Source: a virus
UHGV virus genome: UHGV-0200554
Length of the DNA: 64,000 bases
Strand: one strand, 5' to 3'
This document shows, in pieces, positions 3,287-42,806 of this stretch. The notes beneath the pieces were generated by a model that was given only the letters and a program-made list of their open reading frames with translations, was not told where the DNA came from and made no database searches. The number at the start of each line of letters is the position of its first letter. Positions within the stretch are counted from its first letter, which is position 1. The translations under genes and the position numbers were made by a program.

Positions 3287-3801
3287 TGGACCGTGAAGGT
3301 CCGGCATGTAATGCCAGTTTATGGAATGTAATTTGTAGGCATGGAAGCTATTATTTTGCTTAGCTCTGTAATGATTAGCAGGCTGTGTGCTACAACCTTG
3401 TTGTACCTGAATCCTTAGGTTTCTAATGATTAGTTTGCTAAGTATTTATATGTGCCTAACCCCCTACCCCCGGTTCTAGTCTCCCCAACAACGCTGGTAC
3501 TTAAACTCTACCGTTATTGTGCCTTACTGCCCATATTACATCGCAGTTGGCTGGTCACTATAACCGCTCCCGCTCTCCAACCTCGACAAGCTCGTGCGAT
3601 ACTCCATTCATTCGGATGTTCACGCTGTTCACTCAGTCGATATTCCCCTATCTCCTTCAATCCGAAGAGAGAGAAACCCAGAATCGTATTCTGGAAAAGA
3701 GAGAGAAGATCTAAATTATAGCAGGAGATGAGAGGAATTGCAATATGGAGGATACCTACCAGAATTGGTAGGCATATGTGGACAGCACTTATTGACAAAA
3801 A

Positions 3802-6648: not shown

Positions 6649-6953
6649 GATATAATCTCCAAAATTTCATAACGGTTAGGTTTGAATATGAAGGCTTCTT
6701 CTTTTTGGTATTTGCTTTTTATCTTCTTGCCCCCTTTTTCTTTACGGCAGAAATAACAAATGATAACGTTATCTCTTACCATGTGGAACAGGATATCTTC
6801 TTCTGTCAACCCACAGGTAGAAAGGTCCTCGTAGGAGAGTGCTTTAGCTACAGATTCTTTGGTTGGGGTTTCACCAACAACTTCGTCACCTTCGTGAACC
6901 CCGTACTCTGCCAAAGCATCTCCCACACCAATCAATCTAACTTTAACCAGCAT
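6645..6953 (-). CDS. hypothetical protein (102 aa), possible distant member of the small paralogue family
   Basis: ORF; C-terminus ...YEILEIIS. Confidence 0.45.
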   Translation of the reverse strand: MLVKVRLIGVGDALAEYGVHEGDEVVGETPTKESVAKALSYEDLSTCGLTEEDILFHMVRDNVIICYFCRKEKGGKKIKSKYQKEEAFIFKPNRYEILEIIS

Positions 6954-6967
6954 GGGAGAGTCTCCTG

Positions 6968-7240
6968 CTATTCAACGATTTCGTAGCAATCACTGCAAAC
7001 AATCATCGGGTCTGCTTCGAAGCCAGGGATATTTTCAAGAACGACCGCTTGGTTAAGAGTCAGCATAACCAGGAGAATACCAACATCTTCTTCTGCAACA
7101 CCTAAGCTAAGCAGTTCTTCTTTATTCGGGTAGTGTGCATCAAGCACAGCACCTTCTTTGATCATACCAGACGCTTCAACCATTCCTTTCATGTCACTAG
7201 GCATCATGCAGTCTTCAACTTTAGTCAGGCGAATTTTCAT
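6968..7240 (-). CDS. small acidic protein, paralogue family member (MKIRL...CYEIVE)
   Basis: Shares N-terminal MKI(K/R)L and C-terminal YE(I/V)VE with 7709..7981. Confidence 0.5.
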   Translation of the reverse strand: MKIRLTKVEDCMMPSDMKGMVEASGMIKEGAVLDAHYPNKEELLSLGVAEEDVGILLVMLTLNQAVVLENIPGFEADPMIVCSDCYEIVE

Positions 7241-27071: not shown

Positions 27072-27551
27072 TTAATCTGTAACCACACCTCCAGCATTAC
27101 GGAAAACCCTCAGCATTTTTTCAATATCCTCAACCCGCTGATCATAAAGTTTACCAGAACCTGGAGGTGGTGGGAAACTCGCCCAGCGGCTACGGCATTT
27201 ATAGATAGCTGAACGGATCCTCCCTTCATAAATGTCATCAAGGGCTTTACATTCACGGATCAGTTGTTTTGCTATAGCATCCTGACTTGCTGGGCCGAAA
27301 TCTCTTAAGCCGAGCTGTTTCATATAATGTTTGGCATATTTCTCCAAGATCTGATATCTGCCGAATGCTGATGACGTTAAGCCCGGACGTAGTTTGACAT
27401 AAATACCTGGGTGTTTACTAAGATCTTCTATATACCTCCCGCCACACAAGATGTGATACGAAGCAGCTTCGCTACCGTAACGGTCAGTTCCTTCACTGAA
27501 CGAAATCAACGAAAAAAATGCTCTCAATTGCTTATCCTTATTTAATTTCAT
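27072..27551 (-). CDS. endolysin, lambda R-family lytic transglycosylase
   Basis: Strong resemblance to lambda R: AFFSLISFSEGTD, GRYQILEKY, KQLGLRDFGPASQDA, WASFP. Confidence 0.85.
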   Translation of the reverse strand: MKLNKDKQLRAFFSLISFSEGTDRYGSEAASYHILCGGRYIEDLSKHPGIYVKLRPGLTSSAFGRYQILEKYAKHYMKQLGLRDFGPASQDAIAKQLIRECKALDDIYEGRIRSAIYKCRSRWASFPPPPGSGKLYDQRVEDIEKMLRVFRNAGGVVTD

Positions 27552-28273
27552 TTGAACCTCCGATTAAACCACTCTTCCAACAAACCGTTATGCTTTGCAT
27601 ACTCTGCGGATTTTCTGACACATACAGCATCCCACCACTCTGCATATTGCCCTAGGTGATACCTTTTACTATTTTCAGAAATCTGAACTTGCCACTTTTC
27701 AGCATCATGTCTCCATTTAACACCTGTGCACCCCGACGTGTTATTAAGTTTAAGTGTTCTGCCTTTGTAAGTACCTAAAATTAGCTGTTTTCTTGCCTCT
27801 ACAGCCTCGTCTTTGGTTCTAAAGTACCCAGCAAAAAGCGCCCCGCCTGTGATAGTGTTATATTCTGCATACCATAAACCGTTCTCACGTTTCTTATGAA
27901 CGCCTGCGTGACCGTGTAAATTATTTTTCTGTAGTAAATTATTTCTTATACGATCCTTGTTATTCTCACTATATGTTCCCATAGCAAGATTTTCTATATT
28001 ATCCTGACCTTTTATGTCATTTAAATGCCTGACAAGAAAGTTTTTTGTTAGGGAGTTATAAAACATATCATAAACTATTCTATGACGTTTCCTCTCACGA
28101 ACCTCCGAGGATTTAATACCGATGTACCCTTGCCTATCTTTACAACCCGCTTTTGTGCCAGCCTTTATAAAGAGTTGACTTTTGCCTCTACCTCTGTAAT
28201 GATTCTTTGTCCAAATTAGCTCCCCATCTTTGTACCAGAATGGGAAATTATCATTAAAGAAGAAATTAATCAT
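27548..28273 (-). CDS. HNH homing endonuclease with AP2 DNA-binding domain
   Basis: HNH core plus AP2 motif (YFRTKDEAVEARKQ). Confidence 0.65.
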   Translation of the reverse strand: MINFFFNDNFPFWYKDGELIWTKNHYRGRGKSQLFIKAGTKAGCKDRQGYIGIKSSEVRERKRHRIVYDMFYNSLTKNFLVRHLNDIKGQDNIENLAMGTYSENNKDRIRNNLLQKNNLHGHAGVHKKRENGLWYAEYNTITGGALFAGYFRTKDEAVEARKQLILGTYKGRTLKLNNTSGCTGVKWRHDAEKWQVQISENSKRYHLGQYAEWWDAVCVRKSAEYAKHNGLLEEWFNRRFK

Positions 28274-32140: not shown

Positions 32141-32785
32141 CTACCCCCTTATAAGATCTTCAGCTATCTCTACCCGTCGTGAGACTATCCTTTGATCATA
32201 GTCGAGATAACCATCCTTCACTTTACTCAAGATTCTTTCAGCTTTTAATTTATTTTTAACAGCTATGGCTTCCTCCAATGTGTTACAGCTTTTGCTTTTA
32301 CCACGACCATCACGAACTTCATATTTTTTACAAGGAGTTATACGTATACCTGGTGGATAGTCTGAAGCCTTTTTACCTCTCCTGGTCAACAACATATTAT
32401 TTACATCCAAAGGAACAAAACAGCAGGTGTCTCTACTATACTCCTTTCTACCACTCTTATTAAGAATGTCTTTATCTAAAGCATAGTTTCTACCATACTT
32501 ATCCTTCATGTGATACCCCGGGGCTGTTTGGCAAAAATCACAAAAATCTTGAAAATCCTTAAAACAATTTTTTACTCCAGCATAAGTGGGCTTATTTTTC
32601 TGGTAAGCCGACCCCAACCTTGTTCTCTGTTTAATATTAAACCATATCATACCTGCTTTTGTTACAACTTTGTAAGATTTATCACCTACAACAACTTCAA
32701 CACAGTGGCACCATGTACCGTCTCTAAATTTAAAGTCAAAATCTAACAAATACCACTCTACAGGTTTTCTATTTCTCTTTTTCAT
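32141..32785 (-). CDS. putative free-standing homing endonuclease-like protein with C-terminal AP2-like motif
   Basis: Basic Cys/His-rich protein between ligase and membrane gene; TLEEAIAVKNKL; weak. Confidence 0.4.
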   Translation of the reverse strand: MKKRNRKPVEWYLLDFDFKFRDGTWCHCVEVVVGDKSYKVVTKAGMIWFNIKQRTRLGSAYQKNKPTYAGVKNCFKDFQDFCDFCQTAPGYHMKDKYGRNYALDKDILNKSGRKEYSRDTCCFVPLDVNNMLLTRRGKKASDYPPGIRITPCKKYEVRDGRGKSKSCNTLEEAIAVKNKLKAERILSKVKDGYLDYDQRIVSRRVEIAEDLIRG

Positions 32786-35570: not shown

Positions 35571-36044
35571 TTAGTTACCTTTTGCGTAATTCTCCAACCA
35601 CGAAAAATCAGTTTCCCAGACCTTGATCTTGCTTAGTTCTCTCCACTCTTCGAAGCACGCTTCATAATACTCCTGTGCCTGCTGTTCTGTCAACCAGTTT
35701 ACGTCAGCAAAATGTTTTCTTGCACGGAGATAAACATCCCTGCCGAGGCAATTGCAGCGGCCAGGATGCACACTCATATGGCAGTCTGGGCACAATGCGA
35801 TCAGACCCACACAGGTGATCTTGTGATCTTCGAACAGGTACAACTCGTGGGCTTCCACAGGATGTTTAGGTCCTTTACCACCACAGACTTCGCATCTGTA
35901 CTCTGCTTCTTTGTAACAGCGTTTACGGGCTTTATCCCACAAGCCACGACCGATAGCTTCACGTCCTGCTACCCCCCACAGCGGTTTAGGGATAAGCTGA
36001 ACGATCAGCATTTTCTCTTCACGCATTTTACGACCGTCTTGCAT
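35571..36044 (-). CDS. Cys/His-rich putative zinc-binding protein; first gene of leftward block
   Basis: CEVCGG...CPDCH; promoter-proximal position. Confidence 0.45.
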   Translation of the reverse strand: MQDGRKMREEKMLIVQLIPKPLWGVAGREAIGRGLWDKARKRCYKEAEYRCEVCGGKGPKHPVEAHELYLFEDHKITCVGLIALCPDCHMSVHPGRCNCLGRDVYLRARKHFADVNWLTEQQAQEYYEACFEEWRELSKIKVWETDFSWLENYAKGN

Positions 36045-36087
36045 GTAGCACCTCTCTTCTTATGCATACTCTTACCAGTAGGCGAAC

Positions 36088-36122
36088 CATAACATAATTT
36101 TCATTTGCTGTCAATACTGATT
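36088..36122 (-). promoter_or_regulatory. candidate leftward sigma70-like promoter (TTGACA-17-TATGGT on minus strand)
   Basis: Read from reverse complement upstream of 35571..36044. Confidence 0.4.
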
Positions 36123-36717
36123 TAAACGCTCTCAAACGCTCTGTAACGCTGTTGGTAGTTTAGTAATGCAACTGTAGCACTTAGTCACTATTAGCTCACC
36201 ACAGAAGCTACCAGAGGCCTCAAAGCCGATTTCTGGTGTTGGGATAAGGTTGAAGCGGCGGCGCAGACTTTCGACGGCTCCTCCCGGCAGCTTCGCTTTT
36301 CGCCGTCATCCCACATTAGCACCTCCCTCACGGTCGGTGATCTTCCCACACAACTCAGGCAGCTCTGTTGTCACAGACCTGCTATGTACCCACATACATC
36401 TTCTGGATTGTTGATAATATAATATAAAATTTATTAAAACAATCCAGAAAAATAACCACCCACAGCCTGATCATCTGCTACAAAGCACTGCTTTGTCACT
36501 CCAGTGCTGTTGTCAGTGGATCATGATAATAATTATCATTAAGAAAGAGATCATTGATCAATTTGTAACATGCATAAAAAGTATGTTGAAGAGAGATCAT
36601 GGAGGTGGTGGTAAATACCACAGAACTACCATCAAACAGACAGCGGAGGGTGTGCTTGGTATTAGCACCCACCTCCTAGTCTATTTTCTTTCTTTAGAAA
36701 GAAGAAAATAGTTAGGT

Positions 36718-36832
36718 GGGCCATTATTTGGCCCTTAGAATTCAGTTTAAGGGCCATTATTTGGCCCTTGGAAGCGTTTTAAGGGCCATTATTTGGCCCT
36801 TGGATTGACTTTTATGGGCCATTATTTGGCCC
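36718..36832. repeat. four tandem 17-bp palindromes GGGCCATTATTTGGCCC (36718-34, 36751-67, 36783-99, 36816-32), 32-33 bp apart
   Basis: Exact copies; each can form a 6-bp stem hairpin or a dyad-symmetric protein site. Confidence 0.7.
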
Positions 36833-37024
36833 TTAGAATCACTCATATTGGTGGGATTTATGGTATTTTCTGTTTATTGTCAAACAGTTATAACAGTATT
36901 TCATTCTGTTGGTATCTTTATATAGACCGATCAGTCTATTACAACTATTTAACAAATGCCGACACTGTACAAAATTTCTGAGTTTTCATGTTTGACATTT
37001 CGTTAACAAATCACCAATACAGTA

Positions 37025-37699
37025 TTATTTTCTTCTTTGAGGGAAGGGTATGTGGTCATATCCTTTCCCTGCATTATCATTCACCCATTTCAGGAAGTCT
37101 ATTCTGTCTTCGAACACGTATTTCAGGTCACAACCCTCTGTACGGTACAGCATCAGGTAGTTCACCTGATTGGCATCTGGTAATTCATTCACCATTGCCA
37201 GGCGACGTGCTGGTACTCTCGTGCACAGATTTTTACCATCTTGTGGTTGCCTGCTGATCACAAGGCCAATTGACTCCAGGAACTTGATACTTTCTGCTAC
37301 CTTCCGGTTCCTGTTGTGGTTCTTGTCATATGGCAATCCTGCTTCCATAGCGATTACATGTGTGGAATCCCCGCACCAGTTGTTCCTGTGCATATCTTCA
37401 TAGCTTGTCTGCTTACGAATCTGGTAGCATTTGAACTGGATTCTGTTCTGATCAGCAAGATGACTCAACACTGCCTTGTCAATATTGGTCAGAAACAGGC
37501 AGCTTTTCTCTGCCCACACACTACCAGCCTCAGGGATTCTTCGCTTATCGAAATCTTTCCTGTTGGTCACATCTGCCGGATTTTTCACCCACACAGCAAA
37601 CAGGTTGTCAACCTTCCGATGACAATCGTCGTTGCCAAAGCAGATGTTTTTGTTGAACCAGTTCTCCAGTACGCTTGATTTGATCTCTTGTTCTGCCAT
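37025..37699 (-). CDS. hypothetical protein (224 aa), isolated leftward gene
   Basis: Complete ORF; no motif recognised. Confidence 0.5.
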   Translation of the reverse strand: MAEQEIKSSVLENWFNKNICFGNDDCHRKVDNLFAVWVKNPADVTNRKDFDKRRIPEAGSVWAEKSCLFLTNIDKAVLSHLADQNRIQFKCYQIRKQTSYEDMHRNNWCGDSTHVIAMEAGLPYDKNHNRNRKVAESIKFLESIGLVISRQPQDGKNLCTRVPARRLAMVNELPDANQVNYLMLYRTEGCDLKYVFEDRIDFLKWVNDNAGKGYDHIPFPQRRK

Positions 37700-38175
37700 C
37701 TCTGTTACCTTCTTCTGTTTTTAACAGAGTATAGCAGGCACAAGGCCTGCTGTCAATGTTCACTCGTCACGTAATGCTTTGATCATCTGTTCGAAGAATC
37801 TCCTTGCATCGTCGTAGTGCTTGTTCAGGAGTGCTTCTTTATAGTAGTAACGATAAACAACGTATTCAACGCCACGCATATGCCACCTCACTTGTTGTCA
37901 GCTTCAATCATCAGGAGTAATGCATCTTTGAACCCCATAAAAAGAACGCCACAGCGAATTTGCGGGTACGCCCTCAGGATTGGGAGCATGTACACCTTCT
38001 CTTCGTCACAGAACGTTTGAACGCTGTAGAATACGATTCTTCTCATGGTGGTTTCCTCCTATGTGTGCAAAACATATCACACCTTGTTGTGGAAGTCAAG
38101 AATAAAATCATGTTGACAACGAGATCAGGATGTGTTATCGTTCGCCAACAAGCGGATAAATGGAGGACTCATAAC

Positions 38176-38475
38176 ATGATTAGTCAAGAAACAGTACACG
38201 ATATGGCACTGGCATTCATCCGTGAGGGGTGTGATGTGTGTTACATACCAAACCCTCGCCATCAGAATGACCCTGAAGACCCATCTATTTATCTTTCTGT
38301 ATCTGGCAGAGGAATGGACCATCTTATCTATCTCGGACTGAGTAGTAAGAGAAGGGATGAATATATTGAAAAATACCAGCAGGCAATTGATCAGGCAAAA
38401 GAAGACGCACATGGTGAACAGATGTACAATTTTATTCCTGGTTTGGACGATTGTAAGGATGGAGGTGCTTTATGA
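38176..38475 (+). CDS. hypothetical protein (99 aa; track ORF 37960..38475 trimmed to RBS-linked ATG)
   Basis: GGAGG RBS before ATG 38176; stop overlaps next start. Confidence 0.45.
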   Translation: MISQETVHDMALAFIREGCDVCYIPNPRHQNDPEDPSIYLSVSGRGMDHLIYLGLSSKRRDEYIEKYQQAIDQAKEDAHGEQMYNFIPGLDDCKDGGAL

Positions 38476-39197
38476 AGAAGGTTTTAGAGTTTCAATTTGA
38501 AATTGCTGAAATAGGTGGAGAAAGACGGAGGCTTGTTAATGCAAGAGATTTGCATAAACAGTTAGGCATTCGTACACGCTTTAGTGACTGGATTAAAAGG
38601 TCATTAATTAATCAAAATTTCTTGCAAGATGTTGATTTTATCGTGGTTCTCAAAAATGAGTATGACGCAAGTAAGTTTGGTGGCATACGTAAGCAAGAGG
38701 AATATTTATGCACTGTTGAGACAGCTAAACACCTTGCTATGATGGCGAAGACACCGAAAGGTAAAGAGGTTCGTAATTACTTTATCGAAATTGAAAGAAA
38801 GTACCGCGAGTACATGATTGAGCAACGGAGGTTGGCAAGGAAGATGCTTAACATGGAAAGCTCAACAGATATGGTCTGCATAACTGTTTCGGCGAAGAAA
38901 ATCGCTAAAGTGCTTGGGATAACCATGTCTGTGTTTGACCTGAATGGATTCTTGAGGACGGATGGTTACAAGCATAAACATTGGTATAACGCAACTCTTG
39001 CTGGTCAGGAGGTGTGGAATGATTGGGTTATGAAAAGCAAATATGGGGGTCATAGGTTTACAAGCCAGAACAGTATTAACATTGTGCAATGCCTGCTTTA
39101 TGAAAAAGGTATTAGTAAGCTGGAGGATGACATTTGGCAAGAACTTGTTTGGATTGTGTTCATGAAGAATTGGGTTGATTATCTTGCCAACAGATGA
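38472..39197 (+). CDS. Rha/Ant-like phage regulatory (antirepressor-type) DNA-binding protein
   Basis: N-terminal RLVNARDLHKQLGIRTRFSDWIKRS resembles Rha/Ant-type domains; assignment approximate. Confidence 0.45.
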   Translation: MKKVLEFQFEIAEIGGERRRLVNARDLHKQLGIRTRFSDWIKRSLINQNFLQDVDFIVVLKNEYDASKFGGIRKQEEYLCTVETAKHLAMMAKTPKGKEVRNYFIEIERKYREYMIEQRRLARKMLNMESSTDMVCITVSAKKIAKVLGITMSVFDLNGFLRTDGYKHKHWYNATLAGQEVWNDWVMKSKYGGHRFTSQNSINIVQCLLYEKGISKLEDDIWQELVWIVFMKNWVDYLANR

Positions 39198-40488: not shown

Positions 40489-40564
40489 GCCCCGTTAGTT
40501 CAAATGGAAGAACAGTGGCCTTCTAAGCCATAGGTTACAGGTTCGAGTCCTGTACGGGGTGCCA
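40489..40564 (+). tRNA. tRNA-Arg (anticodon UCU, reads AGA/AGG), CCA encoded
   Basis: Hand-folded cloverleaf: 7-bp acceptor, 4-bp D stem, 5-bp anticodon stem with loop CTTCTAA, 5-bp T stem with TTCGAGT, GCCA 3' end. Confidence 0.85.
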
Positions 40565-41398: not shown

Positions 41399-41691
41399 GG
41401 TGGTTACTTGCATTAGCGATTGCACTCACGTTTTCTATGGCCCTGGTAGGTTGTAGCTCACCTAAAAGTACGCCAGTTACAGTTGCACCGCAGAAAGTTG
41501 AACAACTTGCTGTAGAGCCTCCTGCGGCAGCTATGATCCCACCAGCAATAGCTATCCCCTTGGTGAAAGGTGCACCAGATGCGGATAACTCTGCAATTAT
41601 GAGGCAGAACAATCTCTCCTGTAGCAATGATCGTGCCAAATTAATCATCTTGCAGGATTATGTAAAATCTTTATTCAATAAGGAGAATTAA
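41395..41691 (+). CDS. o-spanin (Rz1-like outer-membrane lipoprotein)
   Basis: Signal peptide with lipobox LVGC, Pro-rich mature part. Confidence 0.55.
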   Translation: MRWLLALAIALTFSMALVGCSSPKSTPVTVAPQKVEQLAVEPPAAAMIPPAIAIPLVKGAPDADNSAIMRQNNLSCSNDRAKLIILQDYVKSLFNKEN

Positions 41692-42806
41692 TGGCTAAAA
41701 TGTATGGCCCATGCTCCCGTAAACAACAAATGATTCTGGAAAATGATGCCGACTTCCTGATCATTGGTGGGGCAGCGGGTTGTTTGTCAATGCGACATGA
41801 GGTGATGACACCTAACGGGTGGATCAGAATATCGGAATGGGATGGTCAAGATATCCTCCAGTTTGATAAAGAAACTGGTAAGGCCATGTTTATCCAGCCT
41901 GAAGAGTTTGTTAAGCTGGAATGCGACAAACTAACCAGGATTGTGCAGGATGGTATTTGTCAGGAATTATCCGACGAGCACACAGTTCTGTACGTCCCAG
42001 AAGACGGAACAGCTTACGGTACACTTAATTTCGGAGAAGTGGCTGAACAGTATGCTAACGGTGAGTTGGCAATGCGTATGCAGACCACGTTTGTGAACAT
42101 GGGTGGTACTGGCCTTGGCATTTCTGACGAAGAGCTGAAAGAAAGGGCAAGATATTACAAATTCACAGATGAGTGGTATAATTGTGATCGTCGTCAGTTG
42201 TTGCAGATCTGGTATGAGATTTACCTGAACGGTAATGATCCCCATGCCTACGTTGTTCCAACGAAAGAACAGGCTGATTTCTTGCAATACCTCGGATCAT
42301 CTTTAGGTTTCAACGCACAGATCTTCTTCGAAGAAGGTTACAAAGTTGTGTTCTCTAATGAACGTGCAGGTACGATTGCTCTTAATAACGATGCAACGTT
42401 CGAAGAGTTTGAGCCGGAAGATGGTTACAAATATTGTTTTGCTACCACAACAGGCTATTTTATCACCAGACTGGAAAACTGCATTGCAGTGACTGGTAAC
42501 AGTGGTAAATCCTTTCTTCTACAGCTTCTCCCACTAAAGATGATAGATGACCCCAACACTTCTGTGGTGATGTTCCGTAGGACAACTCCACAACTGGAAG
42601 GTGAAGGTGGTCTGTGGCCTAAAGCACTGAGTGTGTATCTGGATCTTCCTGAGTACATGAGGCCGAAATTCAGAGAGAAAGACCATAAGTTTACTTTTCC
42701 ATATTATGATGCAAAGACGGGCAAATGGAATAAGAAAAGAGACGGAGCAGTAATCAAATACTGCCATATGGAATACGTCCAAGATAAGCTGAATCATCAA
42801 GGGTAA
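41691..42806 (+). CDS. terL: terminase large subunit, exon 1 (ATPase N-terminal part; contains intein; ORF runs into intron to first stop)
   Basis: P-loop split as IIGGAAG / SGKSFLLQ around a 240-aa insert; true 3' exon boundary undetermined. Confidence 0.7.
   Translation: MAKMYGPCSRKQQMILENDADFLIIGGAAGCLSMRHEVMTPNGWIRISEWDGQDILQFDKETGKAMFIQPEEFVKLECDKLTRIVQDGICQELSDEHTVLYVPEDGTAYGTLNFGEVAEQYANGELAMRMQTTFVNMGGTGLGISDEELKERARYYKFTDEWYNCDRRQLLQIWYEIYLNGNDPHAYVVPTKEQADFLQYLGSSLGFNAQIFFEEGYKVVFSNERAGTIALNNDATFEEFEPEDGYKYCFATTTGYFITRLENCIAVTGNSGKSFLLQLLPLKMIDDPNTSVVMFRRTTPQLEGEGGLWPKALSVYLDLPEYMRPKFREKDHKFTFPYYDAKTGKWNKKRDGAVIKYCHMEYVQDKLNHQG
41781..42500 (+). mobile_element. intein (~240 aa) inserted in the terminase Walker A motif
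   Basis: Insert begins Cys (CLSMRHEVMTPNGWIRISEW, block-A-like), ends ...CIAVTGN followed by Ser; excision predicts GGAAGSGKS. Confidence 0.55.

Follow-up and report, generated by a model that had tools for sequence, protein, structure and literature searches.

The window analysed here, a 64,000-nucleotide stretch of a viral genome, carries four tandem copies of a 17-bp palindrome that are quite likely duplex binding sites for a protein, an estimate that comes from sequence comparisons and sums the origin and the operator readings. Our preferred reading, which is tentative and falls a little short of an even chance, is that the palindromes are iterons bound by the adjacent, predicted winged-helix protein, and that the two would form an origin module at which replication of the phage starts. 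In this proposal, each palindrome would be a duplex DNA site for a dimer of a sequence-specific protein, most likely the product of ORF 37025–37699, which is encoded immediately upstream in gene-sense. Dimers loaded every 33 bp, or roughly three turns of the helix, would assemble into a nucleoprotein complex, which would open the adjacent AT-rich palindrome, from where phage DNA replication would start. Binding of these sites by the 224-aa protein and the start of replication by the complex are steps that we infer by analogy with lambda O/ori and the iteron plasmids. The general kind, an iteron array beside a winged-helix binder, is known; what is new is the protein family, the palindrome, and the CCTAAC/AT/GC context in which it is found.

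The features of the window to which the text refers are the following:

36360–37083, no strand: exchangeable cassette, delimited by blastn block boundaries and taking in the last ~19 codons of the ORF
36590–36717, no strand: left core (GC hairpin, AT palindrome and CCTAAC box), non-coding and highly constrained
36645–36676, − strand: GC-rich hairpin closing the module, with an alternative pairing with 36601–36620
36681–36711, no strand: AT-rich palindrome, 19% GC, a pyrimidine arm followed by a purine arm, candidate unwinding element
36711–36717, − strand: CCTAAC box (ACCTAAC in gene-sense), abutting the last iteron
36718–36734, no strand: iteron copy 1, GGGCCATTATTTGGCCC, invariant in 6/6 window-lineage sequences
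36751–36767, no strand: iteron copy 2, the sole variant seen being T7->C in L005/L058
36783–36799, no strand: iteron copy 3, an interior unit; L073, with three copies, is without one of the two interior units
36816–36832, no strand: iteron copy 4, with a T7->C variant in L098
36833–37024, no strand: AT-rich stretch from the array to the stop codon of the ORF, 30–34% GC, in the window lineage only
37025–37699, − strand: 224-aa orphan protein, predicted winged-helix, candidate iteron-binding protein or initiator
37728–37756, − strand: sigma70-like promoter TTGACA-17-TATACT, TG-extended, 11/12, upstream of the 224-aa ORF; a consensus match only

The array and its genomic setting

At the nucleotide level, the window has no match in INPHARED in either near or distant search modes, and its proteins are 45–70% identical to those of rV5-like myophages (Vequintavirinae). 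These matches include an HNH protein (58%), a phrog_3330 protein (69%), a ligase, NrdD, a Mu-like portal and a tape-measure protein; as judged from them, the source is an uncultivated, distant rV5-like phage. The array lies in an ORF-poor gap of 980 bp (36045–37024), in agreement with the ~1 kb given in the preliminary description of this DNA, which had also placed it between divergently oriented gene blocks. This second placement has to be corrected, because three leftward ORFs, namely 37025–37699 (224 aa), 37760–37891 and 37888–38046, are found to the right of the array, which is therefore inside the leftward block and downstream of the 224-aa ORF. The gene blocks diverge at 38046–38176, where back-to-back sigma70-like promoters are found, and the GC-skew minimum is at ~38000; the skew follows transcription direction, and the array does not stand out in it. 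Regarding the two binders suggested at that time, neither gained support: the stretch with the Rha/AntA-like ORF 38472–39197 differs in every relative, and the presumed Zn protein 35571–36044 is an HNH endonuclease of phrog_5200. The candidate that does accompany the array is ORF 37025–37699.

Some further observations concern this neighborhood. The stretch 38425–39192, with the AntA-like ORF, is unalignable to every close relative examined, and the relatives with gene calls encode a different Rha-/AntA-type protein in its place, so that it looks like a gene-exchange hot spot adjoining the divergent promoters. Three HNH endonuclease genes occur within 9 kb (27548–28273, 32141–32785 and 35571–36044), and the last of them, with the genes beyond, is headed by a sigma70-like leftward promoter (36114->36086), whose −35 is abutted by three direct AAACGCTCT-like repeats with a 10–11-bp period (36124–36150); these could be an activator or UP-type element. 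The large-terminase ORF 41691–42806 encodes 371 aa, of which the C-terminal part alone matches the start of terminase profiles, and the ORF may be split by a mobile element.

All four copies of GGGCCATTATTTGGCCC are exact on the + strand, with a start-to-start spacing of 33/32/33 bp, and each has 6-bp arms (GGGCCA/TGGCCC) flanking a TTATT centre. The 32–33-bp spacing first described thus stands, and the 64-kb window holds no further copy with up to three mismatches; 0.11 matches are expected by chance in the window vs the 4 observed, a number reached in 0/100 dinucleotide-preserving shuffles. One palindrome cluster is found per ~140-kb related contig. Bacterial and archaeal genomes amounting to 596 Gb gave 42 scattered single matches to the exact 17-mer and zero arrays, which is about the chance number by our own estimate, and a host source was not found there. 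In IMG/VR, GGCCCACCTAACTAT gave chance matches only, known relatives aside, and the text of the 17-mer was absent from the literature searched. As a separate observation, 10 IMG/VR contigs (L007, L009, L011, L014, L015, L021, L026, L028, L034 and L036; 70–76% GC and 7–40 kb, most of them 34–40 kb) contain three or four GGGGCCGGAATCCGGCCCC-type palindromes each at 30–36-bp spacing. The architecture of these arrays is as in the window, their sequence and host range are unrelated, and they apparently belong to actinobacterial prophage-like elements.

Column counts within the window lineage are based on 6 distinct sequences, the close relatives (L005/L058, L006, L068, L073 and L098) coming from IMG/VR, ENA and Logan assemblies. 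The palindromes are variable in 2/68 columns vs 11/47 for the spacers (Fisher p=0.0015) and 57/192 for the flanking AT-rich DNA (p=6e-7), and both palindrome variants are the same central T7->C change in different copies. The spacers differ by substitutions only, with the period held at 32–34 bp, and copy number varies, since L073 has three copies. As read from these alignments, the 17-mers are under strong selection.

On the left side of the array, constraint equals that of the palindromes, with 3/128 variable columns in the left core vs 57/192 in the right-hand AT-rich stretch (36833–37024), a region of ~190 bp that evolves fast and may be unconstrained. The long imperfect palindrome noticed earlier on this side was confirmed at 36681–36711, 6 bp from the last iteron, with outer arms of 10 bp that are perfect. 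A small protein encoded in the left core, by a + strand ORF from 36586, was considered and rejected, because a 1-nt deletion in L068 shifts the frame of this ORF and the DNA is still conserved. Neither DnaA boxes nor IHF boxes were found. A GATC/Dam cluster at 36469–36618 was likewise set aside, since GATC occurs at 4.5/kb genome-wide and two other 150-bp windows also hold five.

Three more elements in this region are noted here as they were seen. At 36521–36544, a Fur-box-like palindrome, TGATAATAATTATCA, overlaps a + strand promoter-like site (36510–36539); it is kept in most close relatives and altered in L073. At 36401–36449, inside the exchangeable cassette, a perfect 12-bp inverted repeat (TTCTGGATTGTT / AACAATCCAGAA) surrounds a 25-nt loop of pure A/T and is invariant across the window-lineage sequences. 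Beyond the module, a GC-rich stretch on the − strand (~36150–36400) aligns weakly with L046:1230–1450, L047:1600–1800 and L148:2560–2760, and its hairpins pair despite sequence change (GACCCC-TAC-GGGGTC vs GGGGCT-TAC-AGCCCT); a conserved structured element, of RNA or of DNA, is a possibility, and there is no Rfam match.

The adjoining gene and its relatives

The 224-aa ORF has no significant match in Pfam or PHROG and very few homologues, and a HMMER search of the family against PDB sequences returned nothing. A first AF2 model, with 7 sequences, was unusable (pLDDT 41), and a second one, with 11 sequences, reached a pLDDT of 71.5 and a pTM of 0.75. The weak Foldseek matches of this protein among viral models (BFVD) include replication protein O and DUF6945 proteins. 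The predicted structure supports a winged-helix DNA binder; the identity of an initiator is not given by generic fold matches of this type.

The most informative homologues come from two divergent lineages, L046 and L047, in which the protein is 57–58% identical to that of the window, and which otherwise share nothing with the window (L047) or one distant tail-region gene (L046). Both contain the identical 17-mer twice, 34 bp apart and 5–15 nt past the stop codon of the homologue, with ACCTAAC, then an AT palindrome, then a GC hairpin beyond them, i.e., the gene-sense order of the window. Here, with respect to both gene and AT palindrome, the 17-mer has the opposite orientation, along with its TAW flank (ATTATTT in gene-sense vs AAATAAT in the window), and all 17 bases are conserved in either orientation next to an AT palindrome whose sequence has diverged with its pairing retained. 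Conservation base for base despite the inversion favors duplex recognition by a symmetric dimer over an RNA loop. No long AT-rich stretch is present in L046 and L047 besides the AT palindrome of 31–37 bp.

As an aside, L046:977–4186 amounts to 3.2 kb without called genes and contains three 48-nt repeats at ~122-bp spacing (3464–3755), along with four copies of the 12-mer AACAGTGTTTCA at 2091–2276; a near-copy of the latter, AACAGTATTTCA, occurs once in the AT-rich stretch of the window (~36890–36903).

A profile search revealed a second subfamily, of 303–311 aa and 25–30% identical to the window protein, with members in the Logan contigs L097, L150, L151 and L152 and in L148 (pRHB39-C22_4). 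In 5/5 of these, five imperfect 14–15-bp palindromes, G[TG]ATCA[AT][CT]TTGA, are found within ~25 nt of the stop codon, the outer ones being perfect (GTATCAACTTGATAC) and the interior spacing being exactly 22 bp. Beyond the palindromes come [ACT]CCTAAC, tandem AT-rich 9-mers (TAGTGTAAC three or four times plus TATATTAATTAATAAG), which replace the AT palindrome, and a GC-rich hairpin. Thus, the array-bearing lineages have one order throughout: gene, iterons, CCTAAC box, AT-rich element and GC hairpin. The box beside the last iteron is ACCTAAC in L046, L047, L148 and L152 and CCCTAAC/TCCTAAC in L150/L151, and is kept where the iterons differ; counterparts of the AT-rich element are found in all lineages, and GC-rich hairpins occupy the equivalent position in L046, L047, L148 and L150–L152. 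Iteron sequence and protein subfamily change in concert. The subfamilies are divergent, a six-residue indel included, between the invariant WCGDS and IGL motifs, a stretch that in the AF2 model comprises helices preceding a beta-hairpin and that we read, from the model, as a helix-turn-helix.

One member of the second subfamily is carried by E. coli pRHB39-C22_4 (CP057043.1; L148/L149), a circular sequence of 20.7 kb annotated as a plasmid, which encodes tail, tape-measure and neck proteins, an AntA/B protein, a small tyrosine recombinase and an HNH endonuclease. It has no recognisable Rep, and the family protein with its five iterons is the only replication-like module; possible identities of the element are a phage-plasmid, a satellite or assembled phage DNA. 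It was not accepted as proof of plasmid replication, being a single record with tail genes that is absent from the RefSeq E. coli genome set. Separately, the 107-aa protein P0007 is a chimera that joins an AntA/Rha-like N-terminus to ~65 residues from the C-terminal end of the 236-aa family variant, which suggests recombination between these neighboring genes.

The winged-helix ORF is always directly upstream of the array, but three sister phages, L043, L044 and L045, have the gene and no array. Their homologues (224/236 aa) are 77–95% identical, and the exact 17-mer has no copy anywhere in the 117.8-kb L043 contig; thus, either the protein is not strictly dependent on the sites, or it is vestigial in these phages. 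In L043 and L044, another cassette replaces window positions 36360–37083, including the last ~19 codons, and L045 has the same layout. The replacement cassettes, with TTATCGGTATGGAAACC iterons both direct and inverted, are located as follows:

L043: 6650–7765
L044: 5729–6770
L045: 1458–2400

Each consists of a winged-helix ORF of 132–145 aa, three iterons 22–24 bp apart that begin 30 nt past its stop codon, inverted copies of these, a long AT-rich palindrome (TTAATTAATTTATCAATTAAT) and several ACTTAGT-containing hairpins. Weak DUF6945 and MarR-type matches were obtained for both the 132–145-aa ORF and the phrog_12838 protein of phage FFH2, and a profile comparison found no relationship between the 224-aa family and the 132-aa winged-helix protein.

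FFH2 itself (L040, NC_024134.1) has three tandem 21-bp repeats at 6939–7130, each holding a 17-bp palindrome, TGTCCGTnnnACGGACA. They directly follow ORF72, annotated as ‘replication initiation protein’ (phrog_12838), and a strongly AT-rich stretch comes next; from this sequence layout, the FFH2 repeats are a probable, unannotated Vequintavirus origin. Three unrelated winged-helix genes in this phage group hence have a common layout of gene, downstream iterons and AT-rich DNA, and two of the three modules occupy the same site in sister genomes. KB57 and GAP31, from other Vequintavirinae genera, have this region organised differently, with tRNA arrays, and were uninformative.

Known systems and rival explanations

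The closest known parallel in layout is perhaps lambda ori, which has four tandem inverted-repeat sites of ~17–19 bp with A/T-rich centres, an adjoining AT-rich region and a winged-helix initiator. The window has in common with it the four tandem sites, the adjoining AT-rich DNA and the (here predicted) winged helix, with O among the BFVD neighbors. However, the lambda iterons are inside the O gene at ~20-bp spacing, whereas those of the window are downstream of the gene at 33 bp; moreover, lambda O has no detectable sequence similarity to the 224-aa protein, and no P/DnaB-loader partner was identified. Unlike in the iteron plasmids with winged-helix Rep proteins (the pSC101, R6K, RK2 and P1 kind), the sites of the window are full palindromes at three turns, DnaA boxes and a Rep_3/RepA Pfam match are lacking, and the genome is that of a ~140-kb lytic-type myophage. 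The phrog_12838 module of FFH2 comes from a related rV5-like group and shares the layout of a small winged-helix gene, palindromes and an AT-rich stretch, but its protein family is unrelated (no tblastn homologue in the window) and the sequence, period and position of the repeats differ. A layout of gene followed by repeats is also known from the sopB-sopC centromere of F, where tandem palindrome-bearing repeats begin just after the binder gene, and from some terminase/pac pairs. With sopB-sopC, the window shares tandem palindromic repeats straight after a (candidate) binder gene; it differs in having neither a ParA-type ATPase gene nor a ParB domain, and in having 2–5 repeats followed by a conserved AT-rich element.

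Regarding the origin reading, the repeats number four here, 2–4 at 33–34 bp in relatives and five at 22 bp in the sister subfamily; what weighs against it is the gene without sites in the L043-type phages, the short AT-rich stretch of L046/L047, the fast evolution of the ~190-bp AT-rich stretch of the window, the lack of DnaA and IHF boxes, a GC skew that does not mark the array, the occurrence of a gene-repeats layout in sopB-sopC and some terminase/pac pairs, the generic fold matches, and the single plasmid record. A less probable alternative, although one to be taken seriously, is that the array binds the winged-helix or another phage protein as duplex DNA for a purpose other than replication, such as autoregulation, a transcriptional roadblock, silencing/insulation, or a centromere of the sopB-sopC type. 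The evidence for duplex recognition and for linkage of gene and array applies equally to this alternative, the site falls within what is inferred to be the 3′ UTR of the gene, with a terminator-like GC hairpin beyond it, and the position of tandem palindromes straight after the binder gene is that of sopB-sopC. However, no partition NTPase gene adjoins the ORF in any locus and no ParB or other significant Pfam match was obtained; the array occurs once per genome and away from promoters. This alternative also leaves unexplained the conserved AT-rich element at a fixed distance, and the replacement cassette pairs iterons and an AT-rich region with a protein weakly like O-like/DUF6945 origin-binders. 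That the repeats act as RNA, i.e., as 3′ UTR or + strand small-RNA hairpins for exonuclease protection, RNA polymerase pausing/termination, or protein binding, appears improbable. Folding energies speak for it (per unit, −17 kcal/mol for the + strand, where G-U pairs extend the stems, vs −13.3 for the − strand; z ~ −9 for the whole region on both strands), as do the location of the array between stop codon and terminator-like GC hairpin in all lineages and the pairing that the neighboring AT palindrome keeps through sequence changes. On the other hand, the gene-sense loop is AAUAA in the window vs UUAUU in L046/L047 with every base conserved, a stabiliser would not require an exact stem sequence, and the subfamily iterons (GTATCAAYTTGA at 22 bp) fold poorly. 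Among the three readings of the preliminary description, sites for a dimeric protein and an origin-like layout are thus the ones favored, and RNA hairpins are disfavored by the inverted loop and the lack of a U-tract on either strand.

The copies were rejected as intrinsic terminators, the downstream sequences being UUAGAAU/UUGGAAG on the + strand and UUAAAA/AUAAAA on the − strand; the terminator scan reports only stems between neighboring copies. Rfam 15 gave nothing relevant for the window and its relatives at gathering or E-value thresholds: a tRNA-Arg (40489–40561) is the only family that passes in the window, and the matches over the array are to snoRNA/miRNA at chance level (E 0.1–5). 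CRISPR arrays have repeats of 23–47 bp and unique spacers of similar length. A CRISPR array, or an RNA anti-CRISPR mimic, was discarded, since a unit of 17–20 bp with spacers of 15–17 bp and a period of 33 is too short, and since no CRISPR-DR match reached at least the gathering scores of Rfam. The CTTAGAA tail resembles a type I-F handle; TTAGAA is missing from copies 2–3 and from L046/L047. Small terminase subunits carry a winged helix or HTH at the N-terminus, and the phased repeats that they recognize are located within or next to their own gene. A packaging site (pac/cosB-like) for a protein of this kind would agree with these features, with the single occurrence of the array per genome, and with the ~5 kb separating it from the large terminase ORF at 41691, but it is very unlikely: the gene and the large terminase gene are not neighbors and lie on opposite strands, the L043-type phages have the gene and not the site, and the related contigs are unbroken at the array, the ends being ~27 kb and ~37 kb away in the two full-length contigs. 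Least credible of all are high-affinity sites for Fis, a nucleoid protein of the host, in which a phased bending array would activate a nearby promoter or assist another reaction. Positions 2–16 of the 17-mer do fit the Fis core, with G/C at ±7, a Y-R step at ±3–4 and an A/T centre (PMC4784862), a fit whose chance is ~1/8192 by our own calculation. However, a G at ±8, just beyond the 15-bp core, inhibits both binding and bending by Fis, the INV±8G construct being bound 1250-fold worse than the reference site F1 (PMC4784862), and G/C is present at ±8 in all copies; furthermore, the positions unread by Fis are also invariant, no convincing conserved promoter occurs at the usual distance, and the subfamily iterons misfit.

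Significance for rV5-like phages

The replication origins of rV5-like (Vequintavirinae-type) phages are so far undefined, and in the rV5 genome paper no origin was placed, the skew changes being all that was found, and these follow transcription direction (PMC3606486). If the origin reading is true, it would give one lineage a concrete origin and a candidate initiator, the three palindromes after ORF72 would be the likely Vequintavirus origin, and phages of this type would be seen to exchange initiator-origin cassettes at a fixed site. In addition, an orphan family with no place in Pfam or PHROG would gain a function, and the minimal cis/trans pair could serve phage engineering. A broader proposal is possible but distinctly more doubtful, namely that ORF 37025–37699 and its relatives are an unrecognised phage initiator family travelling with its own origin, as a cassette swapped between otherwise unrelated phages and phage-like circular elements of enterobacteria, and displaceable at the same site by an unrelated initiator-origin cassette. 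If so, origin modules would be swapped in large lytic-type myophages.
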